Source: Candidatus Heimdallarchaeum aukensis (lineage in GTDB: Archaea > Asgardarchaeota > Heimdallarchaeia > Heimdallarchaeales > Heimdallarchaeaceae). Taken from it: DNA of 64,000 nucleotides. The notes under the pieces are model-generated. The model ran no database searches. It saw only the letters and a program-made list of their open reading frames with translations, and was not told the origin of the DNA. Every line of letters starts with the position of its first letter. Position 1 is the first letter of the stretch. Location of the stretch: NCBI GenBank assembly GCA_021513695.1, contig CP084166.1, positions 2,272,001-2,336,000 on the forward strand, written 5' to 3'. The translations under genes and the position numbers were made by a program. Positions 19,786 through 40,706 of the stretch are shown here, piece by piece.

Positions 19786-20916
19786 ATGAGTGATGATGAT
19801 GAATATAAAATAAAGAAGGAATTGGAAGAATTAAAGAAAAGAAATCAAGAATTAGAGAAAATGATTAAAGCTGTATTTAACAGAATGGATAAGATAAATG
19901 GTTCAAGAAAAGAAGATGAAAAAACAGGTGATAATGTCTCTGATAAAATCGAAAAAAAAGAGATTGAAAAGCTTCTTGAAAAAGATCTCAGACGGTTAAA
20001 AAAGGAAAGAATCAGCAACCAACATCATAGACACCACTTCTCTCCTAATTTAGAAGAAAGAAGATTTGAACGTGATGAGAGAGTTCATTCGATACGAAGA
20101 GCTCCTTCTCCTCCTAGCGCTCCTTCTACACCTAGAACTCCTTCCACACCTAAAGAACCTTTACCTCCAGAACATATCGGTCGTCCTCCAAGAAAACACA
20201 TTTTATTGTCTAAAGAAGAGATTGCTCGAGCTAGAGAAGAGATTAAACGTGCAAAGGAAGAGCTTCGACGAGAAAGAGAACGAATGAGACTTGAAGCTAG
20301 AAGAAAAGCTTTAGAATCTGCAAAAAAATCTGATGTTAAGCCATTTATTTTTTCTAAAAATATCGATTTAGATGGTTTTGGAGAAACAATCTCAAAGTAC
20401 GTTGAAAGTATCCTAGAATCTGTTTCAAGAAATATCGAAGAAACTGTAAAAAGTGCTTTTTCAACAGAAAAATCTTCAACTGGTAGAATCTCTGGTTCCA
20501 ATTTTCCCACATCAAATAAAAAGGCTAGTAAATTTTCCTTTCCTTACGATTACAGGAGGATTCCTATAGACGAAATAGAATCCTACCTTGATGAGATATC
20601 TGAGCTTTTATCTGCAATAGGTGATAAGAATCGATTACATATCTTAAAATTGCTTGAACTTCAACCTGAATATCAAAAAGAGCTTTCAGAAAAAACTGGT
20701 CTTCGTGGTGGTACATTTAAGCATCATACAGACATTCTTGCAAAAAATGGACTTATTACACAAGAAACAGTAAGAGGAAGATATCTTATAACACAACTAG
20801 GGATTGAAGCTCTAAAGTTAGCAGAGATATTATATACCAGAAAACAGGACCTGTATTCTTCAGAAGATTCGTTAGATGATGAAGATGATGATGAAATAAA
20901 TATTGATATTAATTAG
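19786..20916 (+). CDS. coiled-coil / proline-rich / C-terminal ArsR-type wHTH fusion protein
   Basis: ggagg RBS. C-terminal NRLHILKLLELQPEYQKELSEKTGLRGGTFKHHTDILAKNGLI is ArsR/SmtB-like. Central APSPPSAPSTPRTPSTPKEPLPPE tract, flanking K/E/R coiled coil, acidic tail. Confidence 0.7.
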   Translation: MSDDDEYKIKKELEELKKRNQELEKMIKAVFNRMDKINGSRKEDEKTGDNVSDKIEKKEIEKLLEKDLRRLKKERISNQHHRHHFSPNLEERRFERDERVHSIRRAPSPPSAPSTPRTPSTPKEPLPPEHIGRPPRKHILLSKEEIARAREEIKRAKEELRRERERMRLEARRKALESAKKSDVKPFIFSKNIDLDGFGETISKYVESILESVSRNIEETVKSAFSTEKSSTGRISGSNFPTSNKKASKFSFPYDYRRIPIDEIESYLDEISELLSAIGDKNRLHILKLLELQPEYQKELSEKTGLRGGTFKHHTDILAKNGLITQETVRGRYLITQLGIEALKLAEILYTRKQDLYSSEDSLDDEDDDEINIDIN

Positions 20917-22259: not shown

Positions 22260-23723
22260 TTAGAGTTGTTTGTAATTGATAATTCTAACTGTTAGTGGTT
22301 TTTTTGAAATATCTGCAATTCTTGCACCAATTATAAGTGAGATTCCTTTTGTATGTGCAATTTCAAGTAATCTTTGAGTTACTACTCCATCCACTATCAT
22401 TGTTTGAGCTTTTTCAATATTTTGTAGTTTGTTAAAAATCTCTTTTACTGAACTTTTTAGCACAACATTATAATTTTCATCAAAAACAACAGCTTCAAAT
22501 TGTTGTTTTACATCATTTACAGCTTTTTCTAACTGTTCAGGAAGCCTTATTCTTCTGATTACGCGTCTGGTGTGTTGTTGTCTTCCGCTTTGTGGATAAC
22601 TTCTTTGTTGTCTTCCGCTTTGTGGATAACTTCTTTGTTGTCTTCCGCTTTGTGGATAACTTCTTTGTTGTCTTCCATTCTGTGGATAACTTCTCTGTGG
22701 ATGACTTATTTGCTCTTTTTGTGGAGTGTGTCTATGATGAATCTCTTGTTCGTCTCTTCTTATAGTTTTTGAGGGGCGGAGTTCATGTTCATCTCTTTTT
22801 TTGCGTTTTTTTGGTTCTCCCTTTCTCTTTGTTCTCTCCTTGAACTCTGCAACAGTGATACCTTTATCGCTTCCAGTCAAGAAAATTGCTTTTTCTATCG
22901 GAACAGCATTTTTTAGTGCTTCATGTATCTCTGCCTCTGTGAGGTCTTCTACTTCTTTTCCCACAGGTGCTCTAGCTACATAACTTACATTAGCAACTTG
23001 AATTAGTTCTTTTAAAATTAAGTCTGCTCCCCTATCTCCATCGAGAAAAGCTGTTACTGTTTTATTTTTTATCAATTCTAGTAGTTTTTTAGGTATACTT
23101 GTTCCATTAACTGCTATTGTATTATCTATTCCAACTTTCAATAGGTTTATTACGTCTGCTCTACCTTCTACTAGAATAACCTTAGACGATTTCTCAAACC
23201 CAGGTCCTGCGTTGAATTTTTCATCTGTTAAACGTATCACAGTAGATTCTTTTACTTTTTTTGATGATTCTTCAACTTCTCTTTGAATTGAAGCACTAAA
23301 AGGACTTACCTTTTCATCCCATTGTCTAATAATCTCTGCGGCCCGATTAACAATGGCTTTCCTCTTTTTTATTCTTACATCAGTTATCTCATTCAGTTTT
23401 ATTTCACAATTACAAGGTCCAACCCTATCTACTGTCTCAAGTGTTGCAGCTAAAATCGCTGTTTCAGTTCTTGATAGACTAGATGGGATGATAATTTCAC
23501 CTGTTGTTATTCCCTCTTTGCTTGATATTTTTACATCAATTCTTCCAATCTTTCCAGTTTTTTGTAATTCTCTAATATCTAATTCCTCACTGAGTAAACC
23601 ATCAGTTTGGCCATATAATGCCCCTATAATGTCTGGTTTTTCTACTATTCCAATTACTTTAAAATTTGCATGTATCTCATATTTTGTCGTTGCTGTATCG
23701 GTTTTAGCACCCATTTTCATCAT
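22260..23723 (-). CDS. dnaG: archaeal DnaG primase (TOPRIM) with internal repeat insertion
   Basis: N-terminal TKYEIHANFKVIGIVEKPDIIGALYGQTDGLL typical of archaeal DnaG. TOPRIM ILVEGRADVINL / DGDRGADLI. Basic and Q-rich insertion carries the QRSYPQSGRQ repeats. Confidence 0.88.
   Translation of the reverse strand: MMKMGAKTDTATTKYEIHANFKVIGIVEKPDIIGALYGQTDGLLSEELDIRELQKTGKIGRIDVKISSKEGITTGEIIIPSSLSRTETAILAATLETVDRVGPCNCEIKLNEITDVRIKKRKAIVNRAAEIIRQWDEKVSPFSASIQREVEESSKKVKESTVIRLTDEKFNAGPGFEKSSKVILVEGRADVINLLKVGIDNTIAVNGTSIPKKLLELIKNKTVTAFLDGDRGADLILKELIQVANVSYVARAPVGKEVEDLTEAEIHEALKNAVPIEKAIFLTGSDKGITVAEFKERTKRKGEPKKRKKRDEHELRPSKTIRRDEQEIHHRHTPQKEQISHPQRSYPQNGRQQRSYPQSGRQQRSYPQSGRQQRSYPQSGRQQHTRRVIRRIRLPEQLEKAVNDVKQQFEAVVFDENYNVVLKSSVKEIFNKLQNIEKAQTMIVDGVVTQRLLEIAHTKGISLIIGARIADISKKPLTVRIINYKQL
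22575..22706 (-). repeat. 30-bp in-frame tandem repeat, about 4.4 copies, inside dnaG
   Basis: Plus-strand unit ttgttgtcttccgctttgtggataacttct is identical at 22575, 22605 and 22635, variant at 22665, then a partial copy. Encodes QRSYPQ(S/N)GRQ. Confidence 0.95.
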
Positions 23724-29065: not shown

Positions 29066-29632
29066 ATGAGAAAAGATGCCTCAGGAAAGCAACACTTTAA
29101 GATAGTGTTTGTTGGACCTAGTTTAGCTGGAAAAACAACTTTACTTAGAAGACTCCATTCTGATGTCACAGGAATAAAAAAAGGTGGATTAAACAGTATA
29201 GAAGATCCTTCAGGAAGAACAATTTACTTTGATTTCTCACCTTTTATGGCGACATCAAATGTCATTTTGGATATTTACACAGTGGCTGGTCAAAAAAGGC
29301 ATAGACACCAAAGGGCGTTAGTTTTGAAGGGTGTTGACGGTCTCTTGTTTGTTGCAGATTCTTCAAGAGCGATGTTGGCCGATAATGTCGAATCAGCAGA
29401 AGAATTGAAAAAAGAACTTGGAGACAAATTAAACAATGAGATTCCACTAGTTATAGTTCTAAATAAACGTGATTTGCCAGATGCAATGGATAAACGAGAG
29501 TTAATCGATGCTTTAAATCTTGGAACAAATTTACCAGTTTACGAAACAATCGCCACAGAAGGTATAGGTGTTAAACGCGCTTTTCAGTCCCTAGCTAGAG
29601 AAGTTTTATTAAAACAAGTTTATAACATGTAG
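29066..29632 (+). CDS. MglA-family small GTPase
   Basis: G1 GPSLAGKTT, G3 TVAGQ (Thr in place of Ras Asp, as in MglA), G4 NKRD. 188 aa. Confidence 0.75.
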   Translation: MRKDASGKQHFKIVFVGPSLAGKTTLLRRLHSDVTGIKKGGLNSIEDPSGRTIYFDFSPFMATSNVILDIYTVAGQKRHRHQRALVLKGVDGLLFVADSSRAMLADNVESAEELKKELGDKLNNEIPLVIVLNKRDLPDAMDKRELIDALNLGTNLPVYETIATEGIGVKRAFQSLAREVLLKQVYNM

Positions 29633-38523: not shown

Positions 38524-39603
38524 TTGAAAATTCTAAGGCAAGATTATCGTCATGGCTATCTTGAACTAATTCCTGAAACCATAGATGATCTCTATGCTAT
38601 CTATCGTATTCTAAAACCAGGAGATAGAGTGCGTGCTTCAACAAAGAGGAGAATACGTAAAGATTCTGAAGATAGCCGAGCAGATTCTGGGGAAAGAGTC
38701 AAATTAGTTTTAGAAATTAAGGTTGAAAACATTTCCTTTGGAGATAACCTTAGTATTAAAGGACCTATTGTCGCGGGAAATGAAAATCTTATTTCCTTAG
38801 GTGAGTACCACACCATTGCTTTAAAAGAAATGGAAAAAGTCATAATTTATAAGGATCACTGGAATACTTCGGAGAAGCAGATAATTAGCGATATAGAAAA
38901 AGAATCTCGATTAGCTAAAATAGTAATTATTACTCTTGATGAAGGAAGCGTGTGTGTTGCTTTAGTTACACAATTCGCGGTAAAAATTGTTGCTGAAATT
39001 GATCATTCTATCACTCGTAAATTTTCTGATGCAAAACAGCATTCTTCTGCTTTAGGAAAGTTTTTCCAAGAGGTTCTTGAGATCATCAAAGAAGTCTATG
39101 AACAACACAATCCTCAAACGATTATTCTCGCTGGACCTGGCTTTACTCCAGAAAATTTTCTAGATTTTGTTAGAAAAAGAGATAATAGTTTAGCTCAAAA
39201 AATTCAATTTGTTCATGCTAATACTGGAGGACGAGTAGGTTTACATGAAGTTTTGTCCCGCAACCTTCCTGAAAAAATAGCTGAAGAACAAAGAGTAGTT
39301 TACGAAACCAGGTTACTTGAAGAATTCTTTAAGCGTGTAGGTAAAGATACTAACACTGTAACATATGGTTATGACAATGTAAAAAAGGCATTAGAAATGG
39401 GTGCTGTAGATACGTTAATGATTTCAGATGATAAATTGCGGATCTATGACGAAAAAGAGCGAGAAAAAGTTGAACAGCTTATAGAGCTTAATAGACAAAT
39501 GGGTGGAAAAACTGTGTTTTTTTCGACACAACATGAGACAGGAGAAAAGTTAAAATCATTGGGCGGTATCGTAGCGCTATTACGTTATTCAGTTGAGATA
39601 TGA
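38524..39603 (+). CDS. pelA: Pelota (Dom34) mRNA surveillance factor
   Basis: LKILRQDYRHGYLELIPETIDDLYAIYRIL matches canonical Pelota N-termini (MKIL...). TTG at 38524 is therefore favoured over the track's TTG at 38503. eRF1-like C-terminal domains. Confidence 0.85.
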   Translation: MKILRQDYRHGYLELIPETIDDLYAIYRILKPGDRVRASTKRRIRKDSEDSRADSGERVKLVLEIKVENISFGDNLSIKGPIVAGNENLISLGEYHTIALKEMEKVIIYKDHWNTSEKQIISDIEKESRLAKIVIITLDEGSVCVALVTQFAVKIVAEIDHSITRKFSDAKQHSSALGKFFQEVLEIIKEVYEQHNPQTIILAGPGFTPENFLDFVRKRDNSLAQKIQFVHANTGGRVGLHEVLSRNLPEKIAEEQRVVYETRLLEEFFKRVGKDTNTVTYGYDNVKKALEMGAVDTLMISDDKLRIYDEKEREKVEQLIELNRQMGGKTVFFSTQHETGEKLKSLGGIVALLRYSVEI

Positions 39604-40706
39604 CTTTTTTCAAAAAGGGGATCAAGGTAAGTAATAAACCCATTTTCCATAGGATATTGTTCAATTATAGCTATTTGGGATATCTTATCCTCAAATTTAT
39701 TTTTTAGAATTTCAGCTGTCTCTTTTATTATTAGTGAACTAGTGTAAATTGCCTTTTTTTCTATTTCAGCACTGAGCATGTCTTCAGAAACATATAACTC
39801 ATTTTTCATGTATTCCAATATATCTTTAATATCCTCTTTTTTATCTACAATTATTCTTCCTCTGACAATTAATCCTTCTTTTGTTATCCAGTCATGCTTT
39901 TTAGCATAGTTCTTTGCTCGTCGAATAAATCTATTACGCAGTTGTATTCTGTCTTTATACACTGAAGAGCAAAAATGTAAAGTGATGTTACTCTTTCTAA
40001 ATTTTTTTAATATCTTCAAAGCTAGTTCCTTACTTCCTTTTACTGCAGATTGTGTGTTAGAAACTGGTCTAAAATCCTTTTTCCTTAAGTTCTTGAAATT
40101 TGTTTCAGCAAATTCGAACTCATTTAAATTTACAAAATCTAACTTATTTTTAATTGCAAATTCTACAATATGTTCTATTTCTAATTTCTTTCCCGGTATA
40201 GCTGGTATCTCTATACCTACTTTCCAATTGTGTTTTGCAGCTTCTTTAATCGATTTTTCTATCTCTTCGCTTTTTTTTAATTGAGGAAAATGAAAACGAA
40301 TCTCATCTAGTCCTACACTATAAAGCATTTCCAGTTCTTCATTAGGTATGGCTCTTGCTGTGTAGAGGTGTATATGAAATTCTTTTCCAAATTCTTCTTT
40401 CAATCTCTGAATATAATTTAAAGTCCTTTCAATTTTGAGTGTTGGTTCTCCCCCAGTAATACTCGCTCCTAAAGCATTGATTTGTTTTGCTTCATCTATT
40501 GCTTCCTCCACTGCATCAATTTTTTGCTCATTAGCAAAAATTACGTCTGCTTTTCTTTGTGTACTGACAGGACAATAGTAGCAATTGAAAGGGCATTTAC
40601 CTGTAATAAAAATCACTAATTTAGAACCTAATGCGCATAGTTGACAACCTAAAGGGGGCTTACCCACTATTTTATTCTTTTTTGACCATGTTCGGACTTT
40701 TAACAT
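39585..40706 (-). CDS. radical SAM protein (PflA-related, COG2108-like)
   Basis: GKCPFNCYYCPVS cluster motif and ITGGEPTL. 19-nt convergent overlap with pelota. Confidence 0.65.
   Translation of the reverse strand: MLKVRTWSKKNKIVGKPPLGCQLCALGSKLVIFITGKCPFNCYYCPVSTQRKADVIFANEQKIDAVEEAIDEAKQINALGASITGGEPTLKIERTLNYIQRLKEEFGKEFHIHLYTARAIPNEELEMLYSVGLDEIRFHFPQLKKSEEIEKSIKEAAKHNWKVGIEIPAIPGKKLEIEHIVEFAIKNKLDFVNLNEFEFAETNFKNLRKKDFRPVSNTQSAVKGSKELALKILKKFRKSNITLHFCSSVYKDRIQLRNRFIRRAKNYAKKHDWITKEGLIVRGRIIVDKKEDIKDILEYMKNELYVSEDMLSAEIEKKAIYTSSLIIKETAEILKNKFEDKISQIAIIEQYPMENGFITYLDPLFEKSHISTE

Follow-up and report, generated by a model that had tools for sequence, protein, structure and literature searches.

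A coding minisatellite in the basic inter-domain linker of DnaG from Candidatus Heimdallarchaeum aukensis and related Heimdall-type archaea

DnaG is universal and highly conserved in archaea, where its role, with the exosome or with the replisome, is still debated. In the Sulfolobus solfataricus protein the N-terminal domain (NTD) and the TOPRIM domain bind RNA, while the C-terminal domain (CTD) is important for binding to the Csl4-exosome (PMC4227792, PMC3672285). Amino-acid tandem repeats (aaTRs) have been described from Borgs, extrachromosomal elements of Methanoperedens, and RNA-binding Sm proteins are among their carriers (Schoelmerich et al. 2023, PMC9879509). Low-complexity regions of prokaryotes are reported to be typical of young, fast-evolving families (PMC10120016). 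Here we analyze a 64,000-nt stretch of the Candidatus Heimdallarchaeum aukensis genome (contig CP084166.1, positions 2,272,001 to 2,336,000; hereafter the window), in which the dnaG gene carries four 30-bp tandem units that encode QRSYPQ(N/S)GRQ.

By profile match and domain layout, the product of this gene is a full member of archaeal DnaG, with the same three-domain plan as the family profile (NF003108) and the S. solfataricus protein (PMC4227792, PMC3672285). A conserved NTD bears the K-Y motif, the TOPRIM domain includes EGRAD and DGD, and the CTD is likewise conserved. The protein differs in the connection between TOPRIM and CTD, which is 113 aa long with an isoelectric point (pI) of 11.5, has ~88 residues predicted to be disordered, and contains the four-unit array, whereas the same connection in 65 other archaeal DnaGs is 8-57 aa long and contains no array. 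The feature is a coding minisatellite, repeated in frame within a basic linker between domains that is predicted to be disordered. It is maintained by concerted evolution and is representative of a family-wide pattern, and we consider it rather probable that it serves DnaG as a flexible, Arg-rich nucleic-acid-binding tether.

The repeat array and the DnaG linker around it

Tandem Repeats Finder (TRF) places one array of period 30 at 22575..22698 (4.1 copies, 95% matches, score 220), by a wide margin the top-scoring array of the 64-kb window; the best score in 40 first-order Markov simulations of the window was 67, with a mean of 50. Three units are identical, and the remaining unit (u1) differs from them at 4 nt, namely two synonymous CAA>CAG changes plus AGC>AAT (S>N). 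Partial units flank the array on both sides, and the perfectly periodic stretch spans 102 nt (22575..22676), ending in the downstream CAA. A first-pass annotation, made from the sequence alone, had described a 30-bp in-frame tandem repeat of three identical units, a variant, and a partial unit, and both its description and its coordinates proved exact. The array lies in frame within an intact minus-strand dnaG open reading frame (ORF) and encodes a peptide with a pI of 11.8 and the composition Q12 R8 S7 Y4 P4 G4 N1. On the coding strand, A makes up 49% of the array and 43% of the rest of dnaG, and T is depleted (11% vs 23%).

Several other identities for the feature were rejected. A CRISPR-like array is ruled out, as there are no spacers and the repeat sits inside an ORF, and a phase-variation (contingency) switch is ruled out by a unit length that is a multiple of 3, because of which copy-number changes never shift the frame. 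As for an RNA-level element, the minimum free energy is -22 kcal/mol for 161 nt (z -4.1), but hardly any of the centroid structure is paired and the self-similarity of the repeat inflates the z-score; there is no Rfam match. A plus-strand ORF at 22572..22772 (66 aa, with MLLSSALWITS... repeated) is almost certainly not a gene; it runs antisense to a conserved gene and arises only because the array is read there in reverse complement. Elsewhere in the window, a 24-bp repeat with 2.4 copies (40108..40165) lies inside a minus-strand radical-SAM gene (39585..40706); its TRF score of 67 equals the best chance score in the simulations, and it is therefore probably not meaningful.

The assignment of the gene to archaeal DnaG, also made in the first-pass annotation, is borne out by the NCBIfam equivalog NF003108, which scores 463.1 bits against a cut-off of 300 and aligns over profile positions 1-418 of 419 (aa 14-482). 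The product is 100% identical to UJG40213.1 of Ca. H. aukensis. Two additional in-frame ATGs (MMK, 23715..23723) precede the start and offer an alternative start at 23723; MGAKTD is the start in all homologs, and the true start is probably 23714. Across 53 aligned sequences, K11 and Y12 are invariant in the NTD, as are E183-G-R-A-D187 and D225-G-D227 in TOPRIM and D442, G443, R448, and P473 in the CTD. K11 and Y12 appear to correspond to K6 and Y7 of S. solfataricus DnaG, which are required for RNA binding (PMC4227792).

An AlphaFold2 model built on this 53-sequence alignment gives predicted local distance difference test (pLDDT) values >90 for aa 6-300 (NTD, TOPRIM, and the following helix) and for aa 390-484 (CTD). 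Values fall to ~40 over aa 301-388, and over aa 324-382 they are 39-45 with no secondary structure. The array (aa 340-379) falls wholly within the segment predicted to be disordered, occupies part of the distal half of the linker, and is unlikely to form a structured domain. Measured between alignment anchors (aa 277-389, 113 aa), the linker has a pI of 11.46, a grand average of hydropathy of -1.98, and 30 K/R vs 11 D/E; of ~90-110 residues and a net charge of about +19, it is bipartite, with a K/R/E-rich proximal part and an R/Q/S/Y-rich distal part that holds the array, and a conserved basic lead-in, RRVIRRI, precedes the RLPEQL with which the CTD starts. The repeat had earlier been placed in a disordered, basic R/Q/H-rich segment between TOPRIM and the CTD; the charge of the linker agrees with this placement, and the structure prediction agrees on disorder. 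An intein or mobile insertion was rejected, since the linker has no domain match and is predicted to be disordered. Foldseek matches in the Protein Data Bank (PDB) are to the TOPRIM part only, namely the RNase M5 TOPRIM (6z2b) and the catalytic cores of bacterial DnaG (5w33, 1dde), and a PDB sequence search with the full protein had no match, from which it follows that the PDB holds no solved archaeal DnaG structure.

Table 1. Coordinates of dnaG, its predicted domains, and the repeat units in the window
Feature	Position	Strand	Basis
dnaG gene, 484 aa + stop	22260..23714	-	ORF; NF003108 archaeal DnaG equivalog
N-terminal domain, ~aa 6-135, conserved archaeal DnaG NTD	23310..23699	-	AlphaFold2 pLDDT 88-96
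TOPRIM domain core	22971..23186	-	Pfam Toprim_4, Toprim, Toprim_2
Lys/Arg/Glu-rich proximal linker part, aa 290-325, includes EPKKRKKRD	22740..22847	-	composition
Predicted disordered, strongly basic inter-domain linker, aa 301-388	22551..22814	-	AlphaFold2 pLDDT 39-52, no secondary structure
Upstream partial unit AGTCATCCA, S-H-P vs S-Y-P; 8/9 nt match AGTTATCCA of unit	22698..22706	-	
Tandem array, four 30-bp units, QRSYPQ(N/S)GRQ x4, aa 340-379	22578..22697	-	TRF and sequence reading
Unit u1, CAGAGAAGTTATCCACAGAATGGAAGACAA, QRSYPQNGRQ	22668..22697	-	sequence reading
Unit u2, CAAAGAAGTTATCCACAAAGCGGAAGACAA, QRSYPQSGRQ	22638..22667	-	sequence reading
Unit u3, CAAAGAAGTTATCCACAAAGCGGAAGACAA, QRSYPQSGRQ	22608..22637	-	sequence reading
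Unit u4, CAAAGAAGTTATCCACAAAGCGGAAGACAA, QRSYPQSGRQ	22578..22607	-	sequence reading
Downstream partial unit CAA (Gln), first codon of a fifth unit, continues the period	22575..22577	-	
C-terminal domain, aa 390-484, starts RLPEQL	22263..22547	-	AlphaFold2 pLDDT 93-96, alternating helices and strands

Copy number and unit turnover across the genus

We recovered dnaG from 11 further assemblies and compared it with the gene of the window. The array is present in all 12 genus assemblies found, with four units in 9/12 and three in 3/12. All five aukensis-type assemblies have four units. Contigs L001-L003, from three independent JGI metagenome assemblies, carry four units each and match the window at 99.5% identity once the array is set aside, and L010, at 96.3% identity, has four mostly distinguishable units, with Gln (CAA) in place of Pro at position 5 in units 2-4. 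Ca. H. endolithica (L007, closed genome CP084167), a species with 88% average nucleotide identity to Ca. H. aukensis (PMC8813620), has four units with Ser at position 5, one of them diverged, and the triplet S-Y-S in 3/4 units. A sister lineage with Ala at position 5 has four units in L004 and L006 and three in L008, L009, and L011; L004 and L008 are exactly one unit apart and differ at 0/1299 other bases, and the three 3-unit contigs each lack exactly one of two identical units.

The 12 assemblies contain 13 distinct unit sequences. Position 5 is free, being P (aukensis), Q (L010), A (sister lineage), S (endolithica), or T, with each variant distributed over several units of its lineage, while Q1, R2, Y4, Q6, and Q10 are invariant in amino acid, with synonymous variants at seven codons. 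A synonymous CAG (G/A) variant is found in unit 1 only in the window and L001 and in units 1-3 in L002 and L003. Divergence is 1.8-6.4x faster in the array than in the remainder of dnaG (Fisher p 0.011 to 2.5e-10), and the edge units of the array are more diverged than the inner ones. Taken together, these comparisons indicate that units are gained, lost, and copied over each other via replication slippage or unequal exchange, and because units turn over in this way the array is near-identical within a genome and diverged between lineages. The peptide motif Q-R-S-Y-x-Q-S-G-R-Q is nonetheless retained across the genus, and the array holds 3-4 units over four independently homogenized lineages.

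At the same place in dnaG, the relative L005 (72% protein identity) has a 33-bp unit encoding RKPQR[T/S]YTPRT, in 3.3 copies at 98%. The first 16 nt are common to the 30-bp and 33-bp units, with an alignment score of 16 vs a maximum of 9 in 2000 shuffles, and the two arrays are homologous. The array predates the aukensis/endolithica split, and the identity of its units at the DNA level comes from continuing homogenization (concerted evolution) and is no sign of youth. The first-pass annotation had proposed a recent expansion whose copy number might vary between strains and had suggested comparing related genomes. Such a comparison upholds one half of this proposal, as copy number does vary, at 3 vs 4 units, in the sister lineage while staying constant at four in the aukensis-type assemblies; the recent origin has to be given up for an array that is not strain-specific, being found in 12/12 assemblies and homologous to that of L005.

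A neighboring gene provides an internal control, in that it shows strain-level change of copy number to be visible in these assemblies while the dnaG array is unchanged. An ArsR-type helix-turn-helix (HTH) gene (19786..20916, +, 376 aa) carries an in-frame 18-bp repeat, ACACCTAGAACTCCTTCC (TPRTPS), at 20098..20152, with ~2 copies in the window, 5 in L001 (5799-6983; +54 nt, 394 aa), and none in the Ca. H. endolithica-like L004. In L002 (5799-6930) the same gene lacks 53 nt immediately upstream of the repeat; this deletion shifts the frame and splits the ORF into 236 + 98 aa, which points to either a pseudogene or an assembly error at a repeat.

Wider scans for the array added little. A metagenome scan with the unit-junction pattern found only one additional contig, L006 (four units), and a scan of GTDB genomes with the single DnaG protein matched only Ca. 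H. endolithica. A protein search with the 40-aa array alone gave no candidates and missed DnaG itself too, a limit of the word index that leaves it uninformative on the motif in other proteins. The arrays are also usable as variable-number tandem repeat (VNTR)-like strain markers for Heimdallarchaeaceae populations.

That short-read assembly created the repeat, or collapsed its copy number, is very unlikely, to the point of being negligible. The published aukensis genome, closed at 3.08 Mb, is an Illumina/SPAdes assembly for which Nanopore reads were used only for scaffolding (PMC8813620), and the loss of exactly one of two identical units in the 3-unit contigs speaks for a collapse. Against this, the same array length is found in four independent assemblies, the units of L002, L003, and L010 are mostly distinguishable and still number four, and the endolithica genome, assembled de novo from Nanopore reads, also has four units (PMC8813620). 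Moreover, given that the periodic stretch is 102 nt long, its k-mers are repeated only at k <=72, so that it is resolved at k >=73 and an assembly with k up to 99 (k=77 and 99 were used; PMC8813620) could resolve it. The name of the 3-unit contig L011 begins with k141_, which suggests MEGAHIT ending at k=141, and a collapse of its 94-nt periodic stretch is therefore unlikely as well. The arrays are in any case a caution for short-read assemblies of Heimdallarchaeaceae genomes.

Arginine-rich arrays in Heimdall-type and other archaeal DnaGs

To place the array in its family, we measured linkers between the same alignment anchors across one DnaG hit list. The 50 full-length Heimdall-type DnaGs (51-99% identity, several of them from named Heimdallarchaeaceae) have linkers of 101-172 aa (median 137) with net charges of +14 to +36, and 27 carry arrays, 15 of them strong. 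The 65 next-best hits (Thor, Loki, Odin, Hel, and Bathyarchaeia-type DnaG) have linkers of 8-57 aa and 0 arrays. The 27 Heimdall arrays average 27% Arg and 0% Lys, compared with 11% Arg and 20% Lys in the remaining linker, and their centers fall at 0.52-0.83 of linker length, always in the distal half. The units are lineage-specific, with periods of 5-22 aa, and include PSSGR, PSSSR, RPSSSRSTSSRPSG, TSDRRPPTR, ERPQRDRDSR, TPRTS, and RPSTTRRGPSA. The array of the window is one case of a family-wide pattern in which Heimdall DnaG linkers are long and basic and more than half hold an Arg-rich, Lys-free array at the same position.

Near-perfect arrays at the DNA level are found in five other lineages; those sampled include 15-bp units in 11.5 copies (93%), 27-bp units in 4.9 copies (93%), 30-bp units in 5.1 copies (97%), and 15-bp units in 8 copies (100%). 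The PSSSR array of another Heimdall DnaG is present in 5, 7, or 8 copies in genes that are otherwise identical or one site apart. Among six arrays measured, GC is 0.36-0.59 vs 0.33-0.37 in the rest of the gene, equal in L005 and in excess by at least 6 points in 4/6. Since none of these arrays is lower in GC than the gene around it, simple AT-biased mutational drift does not fit most lineages.

In a wider sample of archaeal DnaG clustered at 50%, comprising 131 proteins with a CTD, the linker is 3-245 aa long (median 70) and 8/131 carry arrays, mostly Arg-rich, such as GREERGGGGR, RNDQRGSYGG...RSYG (P0224), SRSSRSDSRS..., and PRGRDSYKRED.... The linker of P0283 is nearer to the RS type (SRSSRSDSRSRSSSRE). 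The taxon labels obtained from clusters of long-linker DnaGs outside the Heimdall type were one 'Heimdallarchaeota', one unclassified 'archaeon', and Methanosphaera cuniculi. DnaGs of the last, a cultured methanogen, are 476, 492, or 495 aa long within one 90% cluster (P0140, P0292, P0293), so that the length of DnaG may be polymorphic beyond the Asgard archaea as well. Our literature search found no paper on the DnaG linker or its repeats in Asgard archaea, and Wu et al. mention intragenic tandem repeats in these genomes in general terms only. What appears to be new is a family-wide, rapidly renewed, Arg-only repeat domain, undescribed in the literature searched, between the parts of DnaG that bind RNA and dock the exosome.

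The surroundings of dnaG vary. A class-Ib aminoacyl-tRNA synthetase gene (PF00579) lies downstream in other Heimdallarchaeaceae (L005, L012, L013, L015, and L016), and a 144-aa coiled-coil ORF takes its place in the aukensis/endolithica lineage; local synteny therefore differs between clades. Among other Heimdall metagenome-assembled genomes, one has a perfect (TTTTC)x11 microsatellite just downstream of dnaG (L017:1840-1894), and another has a degenerate TATCACA x7 repeat upstream of it (L016:105-154). Further along the window, an Arf/Ras-family small GTPase gene (29066..29632, +; Pfam Arf, 4.8e-18) is followed by two ORFs of 420-446 aa that have no Pfam match. GTPases of this family are typical Asgard 'eukaryotic signature' proteins.

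A possible nucleic-acid-binding tether and its relation to known systems

The linker joins the NTD-TOPRIM module, which binds RNA in S. solfataricus, to a CTD that, in Sulfolobus, docks the exosome. Because the 27 arrays are Arg-only in composition, we infer a nucleic-acid-binding role, in which the array most likely acts as a flexible, multivalent Arg-rich extension and would add non-specific affinity for RNA or single-stranded nucleic acid together with reach, for example in substrate capture by a DnaG-Csl4 exosome cap. Several points weigh against this proposal. Low pLDDT amounts to a prediction of disorder, and RNA binding by the Heimdall DnaG linker is deduced from composition. Between lineages the array sequences have nothing conserved but a wealth of Arg, with Tyr and Gln a peculiarity of the Heimdallarchaeum clade, and the Arg-rich, Lys-poor composition could in part have been inherited from an ancestral array rather than selected anew each time. 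Given that 3-unit alleles exist and that 65 other archaeal linkers are 8-57 aa long, the array is not essential for DnaG generally. The DnaG-exosome link itself comes from Sulfolobus biochemistry (PMC4227792, PMC3672285). No exosome genes were found in the scanned parts of the 64-kb window, the rest of the genome not having been searched, and an operon link to the exosome was rejected, as the neighbors are unrelated (an alpha/beta hydrolase, the ArsR-type HTH protein, and hypotheticals).

The alternative with the most in its favor, possible but on the whole doubtful, is that the linker is a neutral spacer that tolerates almost any hydrophilic sequence, so that only disorder and approximate length matter and slippage is without consequence. 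Array sequences and periods are indeed wholly different between Heimdall lineages, linker length varies widely across archaeal DnaGs, alleles of 3 vs 4 and of 5, 7, or 8 units exist in otherwise identical genes, and prokaryotic low-complexity regions have been described as widespread and transient (PMC10120016). A spacer of this kind would not be expected to lack Lys and reach 27% Arg beside linker sequence with 20% Lys, to sit in linkers that are strongly positive in every Heimdall DnaG, or to keep array GC at or above that of the gene in a genome of 32% GC. Nor does it explain why the amino acid never changes at five positions of the unit although synonymous variants occur, or why 3-4 copies are kept over four independently homogenized lineages when the neighboring ArsR-gene repeat changes from 2 to 5 between the window and L001.

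Two further readings take the unit sequence itself as the functional element. In the first, a module for self-association or condensate formation, Tyr and Arg would be the stickers, set in a spacer rich in Q/S/G/P, and would drive clustering or phase separation of DnaG-exosome with RNA, after the manner of the FET-family sticker/spacer proteins that the array presumably resembles. The unit composition (Q30 R20 S20 Y10 P10 G10 percent), the invariance of Tyr and Arg, the S-Y-S of the endolithica units, and the RGSYGG and RSYG repeated in the P0224 linker are consistent with this. We still think it quite improbable, since the valence is low, at 4 Tyr + 8 Arg in 40 residues, and since most other Heimdall arrays (PSSGR, TSDRRPPTR, ERPQRDRDSR) lack Tyr, for which reason a Tyr-Arg grammar cannot explain the family-wide pattern. 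The array could also repeat a short linear motif (SLiM), providing multiple sites for docking or modification by, for instance, a kinase or methyltransferase that targets S, Y, or R residues, or by a partner from the replisome or exosome. Conservation of 9/10 unit positions within the genus, with one position free, would suit such a motif, and Borg aaTRs have been predicted to be SLiMs (PMC9879509), but the sequence is not conserved outside the genus-level clade, unlike the folded domains, which would contact conserved partners, and no partner is known; we give this reading very little credence.

A further reading, speculative and in our judgment unlikely, concerns Heimdallarchaeaceae as the archaeal family that includes genomes placed closest to eukaryotes. 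In this family the linker would have become a eukaryote-like Arg-rich low-complexity domain, RS-like, mixed-charge, or R/Y/Q by lineage and renewed by repeat turnover, through which the exosome cap would bind RNA multivalently or cluster in an RNA-dependent way. Such a domain would then be an archaeal analogue, possibly a forerunner in kind, of the RS/RGG-type domains of eukaryotic RNA-processing machines, with the 3/4- and 5/7/8-unit alleles tuning its strength. If the arrays are functional, they would show that archaea closely related to eukaryotes already employ disordered, Arg-rich domains made by repeats in their RNA metabolism; if they are not, they still provide a clear case of concerted evolution of a coding minisatellite in a core informational gene. 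The natural allelic series, of 3 or 4 decapeptides and of 5, 7, or 8 pentapeptides, with a chemistry that differs by lineage, makes the question testable in vitro.

Among described systems, the array behaves like the Borg aaTRs. Both consist of perfect or near-perfect units within an ORF with a length divisible by 3, have flanking partial units and enrichment of A on the coding strand (49% in the array, 46% in tandem repeats of Borg ORFs), create predicted intrinsically disordered regions, and have homologs with compositionally similar arrays at a conserved hot spot (PMC9879509). The array has four near-perfect in-frame units, where an aaTR has at least three, and shares the partial flanks, A-enrichment, and predicted disorder of aaTRs. 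Unlike the Borg repeats, which formed recently and independently in close relatives, it is old, homogenized, and near-constant in copy number, being common to both Heimdallarchaeum species and homologous to the 33-bp array of L005. It is also strongly Arg-rich and is found in a core, vertically inherited gene of an Asgard chromosome, not on a mobile element.

Eukaryotic RNA-processing proteins carry Arg-rich low-complexity regions such as RGG/RG boxes, RS domains, and FET-type [G/S]Y[G/S]Q repeats. The array resembles these in being disordered by prediction, repetitive, composed of R with S/G/Q/Y/P, and attached to a protein of RNA metabolism, and arrays of other Heimdall and other archaeal DnaGs look RS-like (RPSS, SRSSRSDSRS) or mixed-charge (ERPQRDRDSR). 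In contrast to the eukaryotic regions, however, there is no homology and the array is only 40 aa long. The four copies of QRSYPQ(N/S)GRQ contain no RG or RGG, the residue after each Arg being S or Q, and each 10-aa unit has a single isolated RS, so that RS runs are missing too. A FET-type domain normally has many [G/S]Y[G/S] triplets in a Q/S/G-rich region >100 aa long; the window units read S-Y-P and 3/4 endolithica units S-Y-S, and with 4 Tyr in 40 aa the array is far shorter than that norm. The array may work in the manner of RGG, RS, or FET-type domains, by analogy and, for the RGG and RS classes at least, not as a member.

In its mode of evolution, the array is like coding minisatellites (VNTRs) under concerted evolution, with which it shares turnover by slippage or unequal exchange, diverged edge units, and copy-number alleles among close strains. 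It departs from the prokaryotic low-complexity regions reported as typical for young, fast-evolving families (PMC10120016) in that its host is an ancient, highly conserved informational protein, in which the site of the array persists across a whole archaeal family.

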